A stretch of DNA of 47,304 bases from Candidatus Nanopelagicales bacterium (GCA_041311445.1 JBFYJK010000085.1:1-47304); one strand, 5' to 3'; shown: positions 6,631-47,304, counted from the first letter of the stretch. Made by a program: numbers and translations. Notes: generated from the sequence alone by a model not told the origin.

Positions 6631-7713
6631 TTAGTTCAGGCGAAGACCTGTCTGAGCATGGAATAGGTGAATCGCTGTAGGAATTGCCTTCACCTTAATC
6701 TGATCGCCAGCCTTAGGTGGGTTCTTTGGATCCCAACGAACAATTACCTGTGCGCCTTCATCAGAAGCGTTAGCGAACTTAACGTTGCTATCTGCAGGCT
6801 TTCCGTAAACGAATGCATCAGAACCAAGTTCTTCAACAACTTCAACGTTAACTTCGAAGCCCTCAGATGCTGGTTCCCATCCTTCTGGACGAACGCCAAC
6901 GATTACTGAATTTCCAGCTGATGCCGGAACAGCAATATCTAAGTGGCCAACATGTGCTTTGCCGTCAGATACAGGAACTTCAAGAAGATTCATAGCAGGT
7001 GAACCAATAAATCCAGCAACGAATGCATTGCCTGGCTTATCGTAAAGATTGCGTGGGCTATCCACTTGCTGTAGTAGACCATCCTTAAGAACTGCAACGC
7101 GATCACCCATTGTCATAGCTTCGATCTGATCGTGTGTTACATAAACTGTTGTAATTCCAAGACGACGCTGAAGTGCAGCGATCTGGGTACGTGTAGATAC
7201 GCGTAGCTTTGCATCAAGGTTTGATAGCGGTTCGTCCATCAAGAAAACTTGTGGTTCGCGAACAATCGCACGACCCATAGCAACGCGCTGACGCTGACCA
7301 CCAGATAGCGCCTTTGGCTTGCGCTCTAAATATGGTTCTAGGTCAAGAAGTTTCGCAGCTTCAAGAACTCGCTTGTCGCGTTCTTCTTTTGAAACGCCTG
7401 CGATCTTTAGTGCAAAGCCCATGTTCTCCGCGACTGTCATATGTGGGTATAGCGCGTATGACTGGAAGACCATCGCGATATCGCGATCCTTAGGTGCAAC
7501 GTTTGTTACGTCGCGATCACCAATCAAAATACGACCGGTATCAATCTCTTCAAGTCCTGCCAACATACGAAGTGATGTTGACTTACCGCAACCTGATGGA
7601 CCAACTAGAACTAGAAATTCTCCGTCGTTAACGACTAGATCTAATTTATCTACAGCTGGAACCGGGTTACCTGGATAGATACGTGATGCTTTATCGAATG
7701 TTACTGATGCCAA
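6631..7713 (-). CDS. sugar ABC transporter ATP-binding protein, MsiK/UgpC/MalK-like, with no adjacent permease genes
   Basis: Walker A GPSGCGKST, signature LSGGQRQR, Walker B FLMDEPLSNLD and a C-terminal MalK-type regulatory domain. I chose the TTG start at 7713 because GGAAGGAG lies 8 nt upstream. The ORF-track start at 7785 would add 24 non-conserved residues. Confidence 0.9.
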   Translation of the reverse strand: MASVTFDKASRIYPGNPVPAVDKLDLVVNDGEFLVLVGPSGCGKSTSLRMLAGLEEIDTGRILIGDRDVTNVAPKDRDIAMVFQSYALYPHMTVAENMGFALKIAGVSKEERDKRVLEAAKLLDLEPYLERKPKALSGGQRQRVAMGRAIVREPQVFLMDEPLSNLDAKLRVSTRTQIAALQRRLGITTVYVTHDQIEAMTMGDRVAVLKDGLLQQVDSPRNLYDKPGNAFVAGFIGSPAMNLLEVPVSDGKAHVGHLDIAVPASAGNSVIVGVRPEGWEPASEGFEVNVEVVEELGSDAFVYGKPADSNVKFANASDEGAQVIVRWDPKNPPKAGDQIKVKAIPTAIHLFHAQTGLRLN

Positions 7714-7773
7714 TTTAGGCTCTCCTTCCGGGCAGGTACGTGCCCGACGATCCGTTGGAAGTTGTGCAGGGCT

Positions 7774-7779
7774 TAGATT
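7774..7779 (+). promoter_or_regulatory. candidate -10 hexamer TAGATT
   Basis: TANNNT lies 8 nt upstream of ATG 7788 with no SD. Confidence 0.3.
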
Positions 7780-7787
7780 ACGCATGG

Positions 7788-9104
7788 ATGAGCGGGGAGG
7801 GAAGCCTTTCCGATAGCCTTTTACCTCTCATGGAACTCTTTAAGGCGATCGCATTAGTCCTAGCGCTGATTCTGGTGGCGGCTTTCTTCGTGGCAGCCGA
7901 AATTGCGCTGATCTCACTTCGCGAAGGACAGGTTAAGCAACTTAAAGGAAAGCGCGGCGCTCGCGTTGCAAAGTTAACGCAGAATCCAAATCGCTTCTTA
8001 GCCGCTGCTCAAGTTGGCGTTACGGTCTGTGGTTTTCTGTCGGCCGCCCTTGGCGCTGAAAAACTAGGCGTCTTTGTTGAACCTAAGTTAATTGATGCCG
8101 GGTTATCCGAAAGCACATCGCGAACAGTTTCAATTATTTTGGTTACTTTAGTAATTGCTTATTTCTCTCTTGTATTTGGCGAACTTGTTCCTAAGCGCAT
8201 GGCGCTATTTCGTACTGAGGCAATCTCGCTTAACTCATCTTTGATTATCGAAGGAATTGCGCGCTTCTTCCGCCCGGTTATCTGGCTGCTCTCAAGGTCA
8301 ACCGACTTTGTTGTAAGACTTCTTGGCATTGATCCAAAAGAGGAGCGCAGCCAAATCTCCGAAGAAGAGTTGATGGATTTGGTCTCTGGCCATAACGCGC
8401 TAACTGAAGAAGAGCGCGAAATCGTTGAAGAAGTCTTTAATACCTCTGAAAAGTTAGTTAATGAAGTTATGGTGCCTCGCACCGAAGTTGATTTCATGGA
8501 TGGCTCATTAACAGTAAGTAAAGCCATTGATATGGCGGTAGAGCTTTCACATTCTCGTTATCCGGTAGTTCGCGGTTCAAGCGATGAAGTAATTGGCTTT
8601 ATCCACGTCCGCGATTTATTAGATAAATCAAATGCCAACCCGAATTCAAAGATTCAAGATCTAGTTCGTCCTATCATGTTTCTACCTGGAACTAAGGGCG
8701 TACTGCCATCACTTACAGAGATGCGTAACCAGCGCCAGCATTTAGCGATTGTGCTAGATGAATACGGCGGAACAGATGGCATCATCACTCTCGAAGATTT
8801 AGTTGAGTGCCTAATCGGCGATATTCAGGACGAATATGACGTCGATGAACATGAAATAAGTAGCGAATCACGCACTGGCGATGTCGAAATTGATGGTTTA
8901 ACTTCACTAGATGACCTTGAGAGCGATACTGGAATCACCTTGCCAGACGGTCCATATAAGACTGTTAGCGGCTACATCATGCATTTCTTAGGCCGAATGC
9001 CTAAAGAGCGAGATGCCGTAAGTATTAATGGTGTGAAATTGGTAGTCGTAACTCTTGAAGGCCACCGAGTTGGACAAGTTTTAATTACAAGAAGTGGCGA
9101 GTAA
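7788..9104 (+). CDS. CNNM/CorC-HlyC family transporter (DUF21 membrane domain + CBS pair + CorC_HlyC domain)
   Basis: The TM domain starts at ...MELFKAIALVLALILVAAFFVAAEIALISL, followed by a CBS pair and a C-terminal transporter-associated domain. The start is uncertain. ATG 7788 fits the leaderless geometry. ATG 7830 gives the shortest N-terminus. The ORF-track start 7740 is unlikely. Confidence 0.85.
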   Translation: MSGEGSLSDSLLPLMELFKAIALVLALILVAAFFVAAEIALISLREGQVKQLKGKRGARVAKLTQNPNRFLAAAQVGVTVCGFLSAALGAEKLGVFVEPKLIDAGLSESTSRTVSIILVTLVIAYFSLVFGELVPKRMALFRTEAISLNSSLIIEGIARFFRPVIWLLSRSTDFVVRLLGIDPKEERSQISEEELMDLVSGHNALTEEEREIVEEVFNTSEKLVNEVMVPRTEVDFMDGSLTVSKAIDMAVELSHSRYPVVRGSSDEVIGFIHVRDLLDKSNANPNSKIQDLVRPIMFLPGTKGVLPSLTEMRNQRQHLAIVLDEYGGTDGIITLEDLVECLIGDIQDEYDVDEHEISSESRTGDVEIDGLTSLDDLESDTGITLPDGPYKTVSGYIMHFLGRMPKERDAVSINGVKLVVVTLEGHRVGQVLITRSGE

Positions 9105-42834: not shown

Positions 42835-43140
42835 ATGTTCGGAGATCTAGGGTTTGGCGAATTAATCGGATTAGCCATCCTTGCGCTATTTCTAGTTGGT
42901 CCAGATCGACTACCTACTCTTGCTGCAGATGCCGCAAAGTTAGTTAAGAAATTGCGCGCATATGCAGTAAGTGCAACCGACCAGATTAAAGATTCGCTGG
43001 GACCAGGATACGAAGATTTAAAACCCGAAGATTTACACCCAAAAACCTTCATCAAGAAGCAGCTAAATGAAGCTCTTAGAGATGATGCCAAGCTCGCGCC
43101 TAAGAAAACCAGCGCCAAATTAGATCCGGAAATGTTATGA
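42835..43140 (+). CDS. tatB: Sec-independent protein translocase subunit TatB
   Basis: 101 aa. N-terminus MFGDLGFGELIGLAILALFLVGPDRLP, followed by an amphipathic helix. Confidence 0.85.
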   Translation: MFGDLGFGELIGLAILALFLVGPDRLPTLAADAAKLVKKLRAYAVSATDQIKDSLGPGYEDLKPEDLHPKTFIKKQLNEALRDDAKLAPKKTSAKLDPEML

Positions 43141-44249
43141 GCCAATTATTAGATGCCCTTAGCAAAGTTATTGACCCTGAATTACGTCGATCAATTACTG
43201 AATTGGGAATGGTCGAAAGAGCAGAGCTAAGCAATGGTCGCGCCGATATCAAAGTCCTGCTCACAATTGCTGGATGCCCAATGCGTGAAACTTTAACTAA
43301 CGATATTCAAAAAGCGTTGGGCGAAGTTCCAGAAGTAAAGGAGATTGCTCTCGAATACGGCGTAATGAATGAAGAGCAACGCGAAAAGGTTCGCGAAATT
43401 GTGCGCGGTGGCAAAGCAAAAGAAATTCCATTTGCGCGACCTGATTCATTAACGCGCGTAATTGGTGTTTCATCTGGAAAAGGTGGAGTAGGTAAATCTT
43501 CACTTACAACCAACTTAGCTATCGCTGTTGCAAAAGAAGGTTTCAACGTTGGCATCTTGGATGCAGATGTTTACGGACATTCAATTCCGCGTTTACTTGG
43601 AATTATCGGCCAACGCCCAACTGCGATTGATGAAATGTTTATTCCATTGGAAAGCCATGGCGTTAAGTGCGTTTCTATGGAAATGTTCAAACCAGATCGC
43701 GCAGATGCGGTCGCATATCGTGGACCAATTCTTCATAAGGTACTTTCGCAATTACTTACCGATGCATATTGGGGCGATTTAGATTTCTTATTCCTTGACT
43801 TGCCACCTGGAACTGGCGATCTTGCAATCTCACTTGGCCAATTAATTCCTGGCTCTGAATTGATTGTGGTGACTACTCCACAAGTTGCGGCCGCTGAAGT
43901 TGCAGAACGTTCTGGTCGAATTGCACACCAGATGAAGCAGCAGATTGTTGGCGTTATTGAAAACATGTCAGCATTCCCTTGCCCTAAGTGCGGCGAGAAG
44001 ATCGAACTATTTGGAAGTGGAGGCGGCGAAGCTACAGCGGAACGTCTTAGCCAATTAGTAGGCGCAGAGGTTCCAGTACTTGGCCATGTTCCATTTAGCC
44101 AGGCACTTCGAAATGGTGGAGATGGTGGCCAACCTGTAGTTATGGCCGCTGAATCAGATCCATCTGCAAAAGCAATTACCGAAATTGCTTCAAAATTAAC
44201 TGCTCGCAAGAAATCTCTCCTTGGGGTTCCGCTTAAATTAAACGTTTGA
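43137..44249 (+). CDS. mrp: Mrp/ApbC-type Fe-S cluster carrier ATPase
   Basis: 370 aa. N-terminal DUF59-like domain, deviant Walker A SGKGGVGKSS and CxxC (FPCPKCGE). ATGA overlap with tatB. Confidence 0.93.
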   Translation: MSQLLDALSKVIDPELRRSITELGMVERAELSNGRADIKVLLTIAGCPMRETLTNDIQKALGEVPEVKEIALEYGVMNEEQREKVREIVRGGKAKEIPFARPDSLTRVIGVSSGKGGVGKSSLTTNLAIAVAKEGFNVGILDADVYGHSIPRLLGIIGQRPTAIDEMFIPLESHGVKCVSMEMFKPDRADAVAYRGPILHKVLSQLLTDAYWGDLDFLFLDLPPGTGDLAISLGQLIPGSELIVVTTPQVAAAEVAERSGRIAHQMKQQIVGVIENMSAFPCPKCGEKIELFGSGGGEATAERLSQLVGAEVPVLGHVPFSQALRNGGDGGQPVVMAAESDPSAKAITEIASKLTARKKSLLGVPLKLNV

Positions 44250-44264: not shown

Positions 44265-44270
44265 TAGAAT
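44265..44270 (+). promoter_or_regulatory. candidate -10 hexamer TAGAAT for the MgtE_N-CBS / NRMT-like / EamA unit
   Basis: TAGAAT is followed by 7 nt (TCGCGGT) and ATG 44278. No SD. Confidence 0.45.
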
Positions 44271-44277
44271 TCGCGGT

Positions 44278-45579
44278 ATGACAAAGACCGCGACCCCAGC
44301 AAAAGCGGTCCTTACTCGAAAAGGTATCCAGGGATCCTTGGTATCTGTGGCCGGAATTATTGGTCGCCCTGTAAAAGATCAAGATGGCAAAGATTTAGGA
44401 AAGCTGCTTGATTTCGTGGTGCGCCACGGTGGCGAGACTTATCCACCAGTATCTGGACTAATCGTAAGAGTTGCAGGACGCCGCGCTTATATCGATGGTG
44501 CGCGCATTGCAAAGTTAACTAACGATGAAATTACTTTATCTTCAGCAAAAGTTAATTTAACCGAATATCAGCGTCGCACTGGCGAACAGCTATTAGATGG
44601 CGATGTTTTGGATCATCAAATTGTTGATGTTAATGGTCTACGTGTAGTTCGCACTTCAGATCTCTATTTAGCGCCACTAGATAAAGAGATTCGACTTGTA
44701 GGCGTTGACGTATCGTTCCGTTCTTTTGTTCGACGTATTTTCCCAGGCACTTTTGGTCGTAAACCAGGTGTGGATCAAGTAATTGATTGGGCGAGCGTTG
44801 CATCGTTGGCGGACGATGGAGGCGTGGTTCGTACTACCGCAACTCGCGAAGCACTTAGCAAGCTACGTCCTGCAGATATTGCCGACATCATTGAAGATTT
44901 AGAAGGTCGCGAACAGAGCGCTCTTATCGAATTGCTTGATCCAGATCTTGCAGCTGACGCTCTCGAAGAGATGGAAGACGATGAACTTCAAGGTTTGCTT
45001 CGCGGTATTTCAGACGAACGCGCAGCGGAACTCTTGTCGCACATGGAACCGGATGAATCAGCTGAAGTACTTCGTGACTTGGATGATGAGCACTCCGAAA
45101 GTATTTTGGCTCAAATGGCGCCAGCAATGGCAAAGCAACTTCGCCGACTAGTTGAATTTGATGAGACACATGCCGGCGGCATCATGACCACACACATGTT
45201 GATTGTTAAAGAGAGCGACACCGTTTCTGATGCGCTGAAACTATTAGTTGAGCATCGCGAACGCGACATCTCGGATGGCGTTACGGTTGTTGATTCAAAG
45301 GGTAAATTGCTCGATCACATCCAAATTATCGAACTTATTGCGGCAAAACCATCTGAAAAATTGGAAACACTAGTGAAAGCTCCATTCCCAACTGCAGTAG
45401 GAATTGAAACCTCGCTTGATGATGTGATTGAAGAATTCTCTAACAACCGCGGATCATCAGTAATTGTGGTTGATGAAAAGGGCAAACCAGTTGGAAGAAT
45501 TTTGGCCGATGACATTATCGATGCAATGGTTCCGGCTGAGTCTTCAGGATTTGCGCAGGGAAGTGGTGCGCTTTCATGA
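44278..45579 (+). CDS. soluble MgtE-like regulatory protein (PRC-barrel-like N-terminus + MgtE_N domain + CBS pair, no membrane domain)
   Basis: 433 aa. Acidic helical region DIIEDLEGREQSALIELLDPDLAADALEEMEDDELQGLL...EPDESAEVLRDLDDEHSESILAQM, linker THAGGIMTTHMLIV, and a second CBS motif GSSVIVVDEKGKPVGRILADDIIDAM. There are no hydrophobic helices. Confidence 0.88.
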   Translation: MTKTATPAKAVLTRKGIQGSLVSVAGIIGRPVKDQDGKDLGKLLDFVVRHGGETYPPVSGLIVRVAGRRAYIDGARIAKLTNDEITLSSAKVNLTEYQRRTGEQLLDGDVLDHQIVDVNGLRVVRTSDLYLAPLDKEIRLVGVDVSFRSFVRRIFPGTFGRKPGVDQVIDWASVASLADDGGVVRTTATREALSKLRPADIADIIEDLEGREQSALIELLDPDLAADALEEMEDDELQGLLRGISDERAAELLSHMEPDESAEVLRDLDDEHSESILAQMAPAMAKQLRRLVEFDETHAGGIMTTHMLIVKESDTVSDALKLLVEHRERDISDGVTVVDSKGKLLDHIQIIELIAAKPSEKLETLVKAPFPTAVGIETSLDDVIEEFSNNRGSSVIVVDEKGKPVGRILADDIIDAMVPAESSGFAQGSGALS

Positions 45580-46820
45580 GCAATAAATTAGATTCTCGTA
45601 AATTGCGCTTAGGCGCATTTCTTGCTGTTATGGGCCCAGGAATTATTGCTGGACTTTCAGATGATGATCCTGCAGGTATCACTACCTACTCACAACTTGG
45701 TGCGCAATTTGGTTACCAATTACTTTGGACACTCGGTGTTTCAACTATCGCGTTGATTCTTTTCCAGGATCTTGGCGCACGAATCGGTGTGGTTACTCGC
45801 CAAGGTTTAGTTGGGCTGGTGCGCCAGAAGTACGGTGCACGTTCTGGAATGTTAAGTGCGCTTGCGTTGGTTCTTGCCAATATCGGCACCATGACAGCGG
45901 AGTTTGCTGGTATTGCTGCAGCTGGAAATTTATTTGGAGTCTCTAAGTACATTACCGTGCCGCTTGCTGGAATTGTGGTTTCATTCTTAGTACTTCGCGG
46001 CAGCTTTGCGCGCGTTGAAAAAGTTTTCTTCTTACTTGCATCGGTTTTCATTGCTTATGTAATTGCTGGCTTTATGGCAAAACCAGATTGGTCTGCAGCA
46101 GCACAAGGGCTATTGGTTCCATCAATGCCGCTAAGTCGCGACGCACTCTTTATTGCGACTGCAACTCTCGGTACAACTTTGGCACCATGGGGTTTGGCTT
46201 TTATACAGAGCTACGCTGTCGATAAGCGTCTAACTAAAGAAGATTTAAAGTTGCTCCGAGTAGATGTTTGGACTGGCTCACTTTTAACCGGAATTATTGG
46301 CTTTTTCGTAGTTATTACCTGCGCAGCTACTTTAAACGGAAGTGGCCAGACCACTATCAATGATGCAGCCCAGGCTGCAGTTGCGCTAAAGCCACTAGCT
46401 GGAACGCTGGCGAAAGAGTTATTTGCAGTGGGTCTAATTGGTGCAGCTTTACTTGCGGCATCAATTTTGCCGCTATCAACTGCCTATGCAGTTACAGATC
46501 TAACCGGTCGTCCAGCTGCGCTGGATGACAAAGTTGATGAAGCTCCACTTTTCTATGCAACTTTTGCAGCAATCACAATCGTCGCAGCTTCTTTAGTTTT
46601 GATTCCAGGTGCGCCTTTGATTCGTATCTTGGTTTTGACTCAGATTCTTAATGCAATCTTGTTACTGCCATTATTGATCTACATGTTTGGCATTGCCCGA
46701 GATGGACGACTAATGGGCGAGTACAAAGCCTCAAATCGAATGTTGGGTGTTTACGCAATTATTATCGGACTTATCTTTCTCTGCGTTGGCACGTTGCTCT
46801 GGTTTACATTCGCAGGATGA
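45576..46820 (+). CDS. NRAMP/SLC11-fold transporter with NRMT-type (Mg2+-like) metal-site residues
   Basis: 414 aa polytopic protein. TM1 reads VMGPGIIAGLSDDDPAGITTY against the canonical ...DPGN.... TM6 reads ATLGTTLAPWGLAF against the canonical ...GATVMPHNLY.... ATGA overlaps with both neighbours. Confidence 0.85.
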   Translation: MSNKLDSRKLRLGAFLAVMGPGIIAGLSDDDPAGITTYSQLGAQFGYQLLWTLGVSTIALILFQDLGARIGVVTRQGLVGLVRQKYGARSGMLSALALVLANIGTMTAEFAGIAAAGNLFGVSKYITVPLAGIVVSFLVLRGSFARVEKVFFLLASVFIAYVIAGFMAKPDWSAAAQGLLVPSMPLSRDALFIATATLGTTLAPWGLAFIQSYAVDKRLTKEDLKLLRVDVWTGSLLTGIIGFFVVITCAATLNGSGQTTINDAAQAAVALKPLAGTLAKELFAVGLIGAALLAASILPLSTAYAVTDLTGRPAALDDKVDEAPLFYATFAAITIVAASLVLIPGAPLIRILVLTQILNAILLLPLLIYMFGIARDGRLMGEYKASNRMLGVYAIIIGLIFLCVGTLLWFTFAG

Positions 46821-47304
46821 GCGAAAAGAAACATTTAGCATTTCCTAACAAGGCTGATGCAATTCGCTTAAGCATTGGAGTCATGGGCATTGGCACTTCA
46901 GGGCCATTAATCGCGATGAGCACGATGCCAGTTTTAACGTTAATTTTCTGGCGCAACTTAGGCGGCGCTATCGCCACCTACTTCATCAACATCAAGAAGT
47001 TGGAACTCAAGAATCGCGAAGGCTTCAAGTGGTCGGCAATAGCTGGCGTAGTACTCGCGGCACACTTCGTCGGATTCTTTCTGGCTATGCGATTATCTTC
47101 GGTCGCATCTGGAACCGCACTTGCGGCGCTACAGCCTATCTTCGCCACAATATTTGCCGTCTTCACCGGTCATCACGTGTCTAAGACGGCTTGGGGAGGA
47201 ATGCTCGTTAGTTTCGTCGGTGTACTTTTTATCTCCGGCGTAGATCTACATTTCTCATGGCGCGCATTTCAAGGCGATTTAGCAGCAATTATCTGTGCAG
47301 CGCT
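46817..47304 (+). CDS. EamA/DMT-superfamily transporter (partial, runs off the right edge)
   Basis: My own translation is MSEKKHLAFPNKADAIRLSIGVMGIGTSGPLIAMSTMPVLTLIFWRNLGG...LQPIFATIFAVF...GGMLVSFVGVLFISG..., open to the end of the window. It is absent from the ORF track because there is no stop codon. The hydrophobic repeat pattern is typical of EamA. Confidence 0.75.
   Translation, partial: MSEKKHLAFPNKADAIRLSIGVMGIGTSGPLIAMSTMPVLTLIFWRNLGGAIATYFINIKKLELKNREGFKWSAIAGVVLAAHFVGFFLAMRLSSVASGTALAALQPIFATIFAVFTGHHVSKTAWGGMLVSFVGVLFISGVDLHFSWRAFQGDLAAIICAA

Follow-up and report, generated by a model that had tools for sequence, protein, structure and literature searches.

A soluble MgtE-like protein coupled to an NRMT-type transporter in a Candidatus Nanopelagicaceae genome: a candidate feedback-controlled Mg2+ uptake pair

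Nramp-related magnesium transporters (NRMTs) form a fourth class of bacterial Mg2+ importers. The family was named NrmT by Shin et al. (2014; PLoS Genet 10:e1004429; PMC4072509), who reported that most nrmT genes adjoin a gene for the cytoplasmic domain of MgtE and proposed that this partner acts in cytoplasmic feedback regulation or as a metal chaperone; the original NrmT genes, a subset of the published members, were reported to be controlled by M-box Mg2+ riboswitches (PMC4072509). In EleNRMT, the Eggerthella lenta member, D55 and Q379 are reported as essential for transport, the T224A substitution as abolishing transport of Mg2+, and Trp and Asn as occupying the places of the helix-6b histidines of proton-coupled NRAMPs; transport is described as not H+-coupled and as extending to Mn2+ (PMC8806188). 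The available text of the EleNRMT structural paper (eLife e74589) contains none of the terms 'CBS', 'operon' or 'genomic context', and where it names MgtE (five times) the unrelated channel is meant. Here we describe a pair of this kind near the 3' end of a 47,304-nt stretch of DNA from a Candidatus Nanopelagicales bacterium (JBFYJK010000085.1; the window, by which we mean the whole stretch examined), where a soluble 433-residue MgtE-like protein, the sensor, is encoded directly upstream of a 414-residue NRMT-type transporter. The host is Candidatus Nanopelagicaceae (acI), a freshwater member of the Actinomycetota, and close homologs have source names from the same group.

The cassette is a further, well-supported example of a gene pair known since 2014. 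An earlier note, made from the sequence of the window, had read the locus as a split Mg2+ system for which no regulatory partner had been described; the identities of the two proteins and their coupling stand, whereas the claim of novelty does not, as an MgtE fragment beside nrmT was already reported in 2014 (PMC4072509). What goes beyond the literature searched is the breadth and exclusivity of the pairing, the presence of a partner gene beside a close relative of EleNRMT, the conservation of Mg2+ ligands in the sensor, its apparent tandem PRC barrels, and a separate clade of sensors paired with DUF1003 proteins.

Site residues of the transporter and its MgtE-like partner

The 414-residue protein matches the Pfam Nramp family (PF01566; expect value (E) 7e-84, residues 35-386), and its best match in a PDB sequence search is EleNRMT (7qia; E 3.5e-86, 293 bits, about 50% identity over residues 11-408). 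All MntH, NRAT and NRAMP1/2 chains in that search reached 82 bits or less (MntH E ~1e-20), and the NCBIfam MntH model scored 129 bits against a cut-off of 430. The PDB alignment places D31, G34, E109, T200, A203, W205 and Q356 of the window protein on D55, G58, E133, T224, A227, W229 and Q379 of EleNRMT, respectively. At the metal site of transmembrane helix 1 (TM1), which reads DDDPAG, the Asp is kept (D31) and Gly (G34) stands in place of the Asn of DPGN; at that of TM6, G-T200-T-L-A203-P-W205, Ala is replaced by Thr and Met by Ala, and Trp (W205) occupies the position of the helix-6b proton-pathway His. The DDDPAG and GTTLAPW motifs are near-invariant across 57 type-A transporters, with the rare changes all falling outside the metal-site residues. 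By this alignment, all of the functionally tested EleNRMT residues are conserved, including T224 (T200). The site residues and the similarity to PDB entries together identify an NRMT-type protein and rule out a canonical MntH, the alternative that intact DPGN and MPH motifs would have signalled; both motifs are replaced. The residues cited in the earlier note, as well as its placement of the protein in the NRMT clade, were therefore correct.

Pfam assigns the upstream protein an MgtE_N domain at residues 196-296 (E 6.5e-23) and a pair of CBS domains (E 4.1e-14); a PDB sequence search with it returned only MgtE cytosolic domains (E ~1e-19, residues 186-422). Pfam found no match to the MgtE transmembrane domain (PF01769) in the protein, which ends 11 residues past the CBS pair, and the NCBIfam mgtE model TIGR00400 was covered only over profile positions 21-252, with a score of 97 against a cut-off of 233; the sensor is thus not an MgtE transporter. 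An AlphaFold2 (AF2) model built with 56 diverse homologs (pLDDT 90.2, pTM 0.84) was matched by Foldseek to the Mg2+-bound MgtE cytosolic domain 2yvy over its C-terminal part (E 1.5e-17, target-normalised TM-score 0.84, root mean square deviation 2.5 A, 237 columns). The model and the domain matches indicate that the 433-residue protein corresponds to the cytoplasmic half of MgtE minus the pore, a predicted sensor of the divalent-cation type, in agreement with the architecture first read from the sequence.

The regulatory Mg2+ sites of Thermus thermophilus MgtE have been defined by mutation (PMC5882242), and six of their cytosolic ligands (E59, D91, D95, D226, D247 and D250) were mapped onto the window sensor and 56 diverse sensors. 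Five fall on acidic residues: in MgtE_N, E59 of Mg7 corresponds to D227, D91 of Mg4 to D259 and D95 of Mg6 to E263, and in the CBS pair D247 of Mg4 corresponds to D412 and D250 of Mg5 to D415. Across the 56 sensors, each of the five is acidic in 47 to 53. The sixth, Mg5 ligand D226, falls on R391 of the CBS pair, which is not acidic; 41 of the 56 sensors have Arg or Asn there. By this mapping the sensor retains the Mg4, Mg6 and Mg7 ligands and half of Mg5, five of the six tested. The positions that we take to form the ATP site of MgtE (R187, D188 and F227) are replaced in the window sensor by I351, E352 and G392, from which we draw no conclusion.

The N-terminal part of the sensor had been described in the earlier note as PRC-barrel-like repeats, a description that finds support in homologs and in the model, although the Pfam PRC match on the window protein itself (PF05239, residues 27-84, E 0.019) falls below threshold. 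Homologs of the sensor match the same family at E 1e-12 to 4e-11, and an AF2 model of residues 1-185 (pLDDT 88) has as its best Foldseek match the tandem PRC-barrel structure CdpB1/CdpB2 (8qzo; E 4.7e-4, 177 columns), followed by the reaction-centre H subunit, MTH1859, CdvA and RimM, all PRC barrels at E >1e-3. The first barrel is probable; a second is suggested by the tandem match of the model to 8qzo. The closest unsplit relatives of the sensor are PRC-MgtE_N-CBS-MgtE proteins of 585-601 residues (P0161, P0163, P0183 and P0213), and the soluble sensor thus looks like a PRC-type MgtE that has lost its pore. Two further proteins, P0238 (616 residues) and P0248 (611 residues), carry, fused behind PRC-MgtE_N-CBS, a C-terminal stretch of about 190 residues with about five hydrophobic helices and no Pfam match, possibly an MgtE pore that has diverged or a different membrane partner.

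Membrane partners of the sensor family

A sensor alignment searched against one genome per species returned 80 loci: 54 are Nanopelagicales-like (sensors 65-95% identical to that of the window) and the remaining 26, mostly from Acidimicrobiia, are more distant (42-46%). In 78 of the 80 the gene immediately after the sensor encodes an NRAMP; of the other two, one has its NRAMP gene 4 kb off and one lies at a contig end. Metagenomic sensors of only 32-38% identity (P0143, P0144, P0145 and P0136) also adjoin NRAMP genes, as do 10 copies on plasmids or replicons filed as plasmids, from Leifsonia, Arthrobacter, Pseudarthrobacter, Cellulomonas, Mycobacterium, Mycolicibacterium, Rhodococcus, Streptomyces, Alicyclobacillus and Citrobacter. 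On Eggerthellaceae-type contigs, a relative 92% identical to the EleNRMT crystal construct has a 450-residue PRC-MgtE_N-CBS gene ending 3 nt upstream. The co-occurrence of the two genes is near-exclusive and the pair is translationally coupled, and the neighbourhood comparison called for in the earlier note thus places the pair far beyond this genome.

Every NRAMP partner with a readable site region has an NRMT-type site, with the consensus D-x-G/A/S-G in TM1 and G-T-T-x-A/T/S-P-W/Y in TM6, and none has DPGN or the Met. Two main variants of the site occur. One, with Thr and Ala (T..A), is shared by the window transporter, EleNRMT and the plasmid copies; the other, with two Thr (T..T), is found in most Acidimicrobiia-type loci (L061-L086), where the motif reads G-T-T-I-T-P-Y-M and Thr (Ser in two) stands at the canonical Met position. 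We found no published description of the selectivity of the T..T variant.

The plasmid modules differ in size and surroundings. Those of loci L097, L098, L100, L102, L106 and L107 encode mostly NRAMPs of 530-580 residues with an NRMT-type site and adjoin ArsR/SmtB regulators, heavy-metal P-type ATPases, mer genes or MgtC/SapB; L107 also has a second, 414-residue NRAMP upstream with the motifs DDDPSG and GTTITPY. At the metagenomic P0143 locus the sensor sits between two NRAMP genes (404 and 571 residues) and is accompanied by two ArsR-type helix-turn-helix regulators. The surroundings of the plasmid modules hint that some pairs serve metal-stress functions.

A second membrane partner of the family was found in other Actinomycetes. 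The earlier note had pointed to a homologous sensor paired with a DUF1003 protein near mrp, in the neighbourhood of Rv1232c; we take Rv1232c-Rv1231c of M. tuberculosis to be such a pair, with Rv1231c as the DUF1003 protein. The arrangement holds in several genera: in Nocardia farcinica the sensor is followed by DUF1003 (Pfam PF06210, E 1.6e-35) with mrp downstream and CorA 2 kb upstream, in Tsukamurella the gene for the CBS-domain protein overlaps the DUF1003 gene by 4 nt, and in Nonomuraea the genes run sensor-DUF1003-mrp. When metagenomes were scanned with these three sensors, 80 loci came back, of which 72 have DUF1003 directly downstream, including all 71 with room for it; mrp lies within the flank in 45 and an NRAMP gene in none. 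A CorA gene, a further Mg2+-related neighbour of this arrangement, is located 1-3 kb upstream of the sensor-DUF1003 genes in Nocardia (L095 678-1745) and at the metagenomic loci L142, L146, L148, L159, L172 and L174. When a Mycobacterium ortholog of the sensor was sought by profile search, only Acidimicrobiia-type sensors were returned, and our literature search found no paper linking DUF1003 to MgtE. A tblastn search of the window returned no homolog of DUF1003, nor of CorA, the MgtE membrane domain, MgtC or DUF502; the gene downstream of its sensor is the NRAMP gene.

The relationship between the two kinds of sensor was assessed with a neighbour-joining tree of 35 sensors, a distance method, with bootstrap support and a midpoint root. 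The window sensor groups with the NRMT-paired Nanopelagicales and Acidimicrobiia-type sensors (bootstrap 100%), and the DUF1003-paired sensors form a clade of their own (100%), sister to a clade paired with the long NRAMPs of actinomycete plasmids (79%); the midpoint root separates these from the PRC-MgtE fusions and a few others (97%). The sensor clades thus track the type of partner, which is the pattern expected of co-evolving subunits. With identities of 26-29% to the DUF1003-paired sensors and its position in this tree, the window sensor is ruled out as their ortholog. The earlier suggestion that the membrane partner has been swapped in this genome is consequently too simple: the difference next to mrp involves the entire cassette, sensor and partner alike, rather than a new partner for one orthologous sensor. 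Clearly, the sensor family has changed its membrane partner during evolution, and by the distance tree, rooted at its midpoint, pairing with an NRAMP would be the older arrangement of split sensors.

A third kind of membrane neighbour occurs at L092 (251-3086), where the gene order is sensor homolog (P0176), DUF502 membrane protein, CNNM/CorC-type gene. It is possible, if doubtful, that PRC-MgtE_N-CBS is a portable cytoplasmic Mg2+-sensing subunit that operates on unrelated membrane proteins (MgtE, in which it is fused; NRMT; DUF1003; and possibly DUF502/CNNM), each clade being faithful to one partner. Were this so, the two-helix DUF1003 proteins would belong to a hitherto unrecognised system, an Mg2+ channel or transporter under the control of an MgtE-like sensor, and the activity of NRMTs in vivo would differ from that of the isolated transporter. 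The DUF1003 proteins of mycobacteria and their relatives are pointed to as a second, unstudied client of such a sensor.

Proposed negative feedback on Mg2+ uptake and its alternatives

According to the EleNRMT work, NRMTs are uncoupled uniporters, and cells that use them therefore need a means to stop uptake, for which the MgtE-like partner is the obvious candidate. We consider it fairly probable that the window encodes a two-gene nrmT cassette in which the sensor gives NRMT-mediated Mg2+ uptake negative feedback. By analogy with EleNRMT, the transporter would act as an H+-uncoupled uniporter in which the membrane potential drives the import of hydrated Mg2+ and of Mn2+ as well. The sensor would dimerise via its CBS pair, as MgtE does, and at high cytoplasmic Mg2+ would clamp shut like the cytosolic domain of MgtE; in one of its two states it would dock on the cytoplasmic face of the NRMT and block or permit transport. 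The PRC barrels, which are present in the PRC-MgtE fusions and absent from the matched MgtE structures, may aid assembly or docking. An otherwise unregulated uniporter would in this way gain the negative feedback that is built in for MgtE and CorA. We infer the physical interaction of sensor and transporter, the direction of regulation, and the role of Mg2+ as the physiological ligand and substrate; the near-exclusive pairing, the retained ligands and the correspondence of clade and partner sharpen the hypothesis of a regulatory subunit.

Several observations weigh against feedback control of this kind. In published work, co-expression of the MgtE fragment of A. capsulatum with its NrmT in a Mg2+-transport-deficient B. 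subtilis strain left rescue unchanged and this NrmT was found to be mainly a Mn2+ transporter, the two weightiest points, and NrmT works in vivo without its partner (PMC4072509); EleNRMT, too, is reported to work in proteoliposomes without a partner (PMC8806188). Within the sensor, the Mg5 ligand D226 is Arg in the window's clade, the plug helix is gone, and the Mg2 and Mg3 ligands, which link sensor and pore in MgtE, have no counterpart because the protein ends so soon after the CBS pair. Sensor P0152 has no membrane-protein gene beside it. An Rfam scan of the whole window returned the msiK RNA alone and found neither an M-box nor any other riboswitch upstream of the sensor.

The same published tests invite the reading that the pair handles Mn2+ or another transition metal, with the NRMT-type protein acting as a Mn2+ importer and the MgtE-like protein sensing that metal. 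The A. capsulatum NrmT, encoded with an adjacent MgtE fragment, is reported to have given full rescue of a Mn2+-uptake mutant and only partial rescue of a Mg2+ mutant (PMC4072509), the transport of Mn2+ by EleNRMT (PMC8806188) would agree with such a role, and the regulators, heavy-metal ATPases and mer genes around the plasmid modules, together with the two ArsR-type regulators and two NRAMP genes at P0143, point in the same direction. We nonetheless regard this as unlikely for the window. All residues of the EleNRMT site are present in its transporter, among them the Thr that Mg2+ transport requires, at about 50% identity; the hard-oxygen carboxylate ligands of MgtE are kept in the sensor; other neighbours of such pairs are Mg2+-related (MgtC, CNNM/CorC and CorA); and the original NrmT genes are under M-box Mg2+ riboswitch control (PMC4072509).

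Less probable again is a sensor that does not gate the transporter at all and acts instead as a metal buffer, a chaperone, or a Mg2+- or nucleotide-responsive regulator of some other target, with adjacency reflecting shared regulation only. The single published co-expression test, which had no effect, and the chaperone role also suggested by Shin et al. (PMC4072509) are consistent with it, as are the loss of the plug-helix ligands, by which MgtE links its sensor to its pore, and the occurrence of sensor relatives beside unrelated membrane proteins (DUF1003, DUF502) or none. Set against this are the near-exclusivity of the pairing in both directions (78 of 80 sensor loci, and all readable partners NRMT-type), the overlap of the sensor stop and NRMT start codons, the movement of the pair as a unit among chromosomal contexts and plasmids, and the tracking of partner type by the sensor clades.

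The EamA/DMT gene that follows the transporter could in principle make this a three-gene system, in which EamA would export a counter-substrate or chelator, a very improbable arrangement despite the ATGA shared by the NRMT stop and EamA start codons (46817-46820) and the retention of the order sensor-NRMT-EamA(-PHP) among mrp-type Nanopelagicales loci whose sensors are as little as 65-70% identical. The 54 Nanopelagicales-like loci fall into two contexts, mrp-sensor-NRMT-EamA-PHP, as in the window, and one without mrp and EamA (L015, L034, L043 and about 10 others), in which CtaG or a hydrolase gene lies downstream on the opposite strand; within the order, the sensor-NRMT pair therefore changes place as one piece. 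In 35 of the 54, each of them mrp-type, EamA follows NRMT; it does so at no locus among the 26 more distant genomic ones or among the Eggerthellaceae and plasmid loci examined. This distribution identifies the sensor-NRMT pair as the unit and EamA as a lineage-specific neighbour; EamA and mrp are lineage-specific flanks, EamA is ruled out as a core component, and the three-gene unit of the earlier note was not borne out.

The locus and its comparison with known systems

The features of the locus are collected below. Open reading frame (ORF) calls and direct reading of the sequence reproduce the previously noted coordinates and lengths and both ATGA overlaps, of which that between the sensor stop and the NRMT start occupies 45576-45579 (4 nt). 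Full-length orthologs of the EamA protein, which is truncated by the end of the window, have 292-295 residues (loci L001 and L006).

Features of the window discussed in the text, with the evidence for each
Feature	Coordinates	Strand	Evidence
mrp/apbC-type Fe-S cluster carrier ATPase (context only)	43137..44249	+	Pfam ParA/NUBPL E 3e-85, FeS_assembly_P
TAGAAT hexamer, 7 nt before the sensor ATG and 15 nt past the mrp/apbC-type stop	44265-44270	+	sequence read
Soluble PRC-PRC-MgtE_N-CBS-CBS sensor protein (predicted), 433 residues	44278..45579	+	ORF, Pfam, PDB sequence search, AF2, Foldseek
Two PRC-like beta-barrel domains (putative), sensor residues ~20-90 and ~100-176	44335..44805	+	weak Pfam, homologs, AF2/Foldseek
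MgtE_N helical domain, sensor residues ~187-296	44836..45165	+	Pfam, site mapping
CBS pair, sensor residues ~299-424	45172..45549	+	Pfam, PDB sequence search, site mapping
NRMT-type SLC11 transporter (predicted), 414 residues	45576..46820	+	Pfam Nramp, PDB best match EleNRMT
EamA/DMT-family membrane protein, 5' part, 162 codons	46817..47304 (window end)	+	Pfam EamA (PF00892, first repeat, E 6.4e-12)
CNNM/CorB-type protein	7740-9104	+	Pfam CNNM E 8e-42, CBS, CorC_HlyC
msiK RNA motif	7714-7772	-	Rfam, 57.9 bits
MsiK/MalK-type ABC ATPase gene	6631-7785	-

The 28 nt between the mrp-type stop and the sensor ATG contain the TAGAAT hexamer that had been put forward as a promoter. Its sequence and position are as noted, yet a sigma-70 scan did not flag it, leaving it statistically indistinguishable, and its conservation is local: it is kept at -12/-13 in the four closest loci (90-95% identity) and a few others, 11 of 35 in total by a crude assignment of starts. 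As a demonstrable promoter it was accordingly dropped. It may represent the -10 element of a transcript that is leaderless or nearly so, which would be plausible for an actinobacterium.

Elsewhere in the window, the CNNM/CorB-type protein is a putative Mg2+ exporter or regulator encoded on the same stretch as the NRMT pair. The msiK motif lies in the 5' region of the ABC ATPase gene and overlaps the annotated start of that ORF, the true start of which is therefore probably further downstream. For annotation, the names 'CBS domain-containing protein' and 'Nramp family divalent metal transporter' in the window would best give way to the sensor and the NRMT of a candidate Mg2+ uptake pair.

The closest described counterparts are the pairs of Shin et al. 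2014 (PMC4072509), namely the Ca_c0685 operon of C. acetobutylicum and Acp2976-Acp2977 of A. capsulatum, in which a soluble MgtE fragment likewise lies immediately upstream of NrmT and for which the same role, cytoplasmic feedback regulation, was proposed. The window pair differs in its freshwater acI host, in its mrp and EamA flanks and, unlike the M-box-controlled members, in lacking an M-box. Its sensor is a single 433-residue polypeptide with two predicted PRC barrels, whereas the partner of the 2014 pairs is called small, and the available text of that paper makes no mention of PRC.

EleNRMT (7qia/7qic; Ramanadane et al. 2022) aligns with the window NRMT over its full length and shares with it the D, G, T and A of the site, the helix-3 Glu, the helix-10 Gln and the Trp in place of the helix-6b His; within TM1 the window protein reads D-P-A-G and EleNRMT D-A-G-G. 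EleNRMT was studied alone, yet its 92%-identical Eggerthellaceae relative has the PRC-MgtE_N-CBS gene just upstream. With T. thermophilus MgtE (2yvx/2yvy) the window sensor has in common the fold of the N domain and CBS pair and the ligands of Mg4, Mg6, Mg7 and half of Mg5. In contrast to MgtE, it has no transmembrane domain, plug helix or Mg1-Mg3 ligands, it carries Arg at D226, and it possesses an additional N-terminus of apparent tandem PRC barrels. The sensor-DUF1003 pairs of other Actinomycetes share a homologous sensor architecture, a sensor gene directly upstream of, and often overlapping, the gene for a membrane protein, and the proximity of mrp; they differ in that the partner is a small two-helix DUF1003 protein rather than an NRAMP, and in the gene order, which is sensor-DUF1003-mrp in those genomes and mrp-sensor-NRMT in the window.

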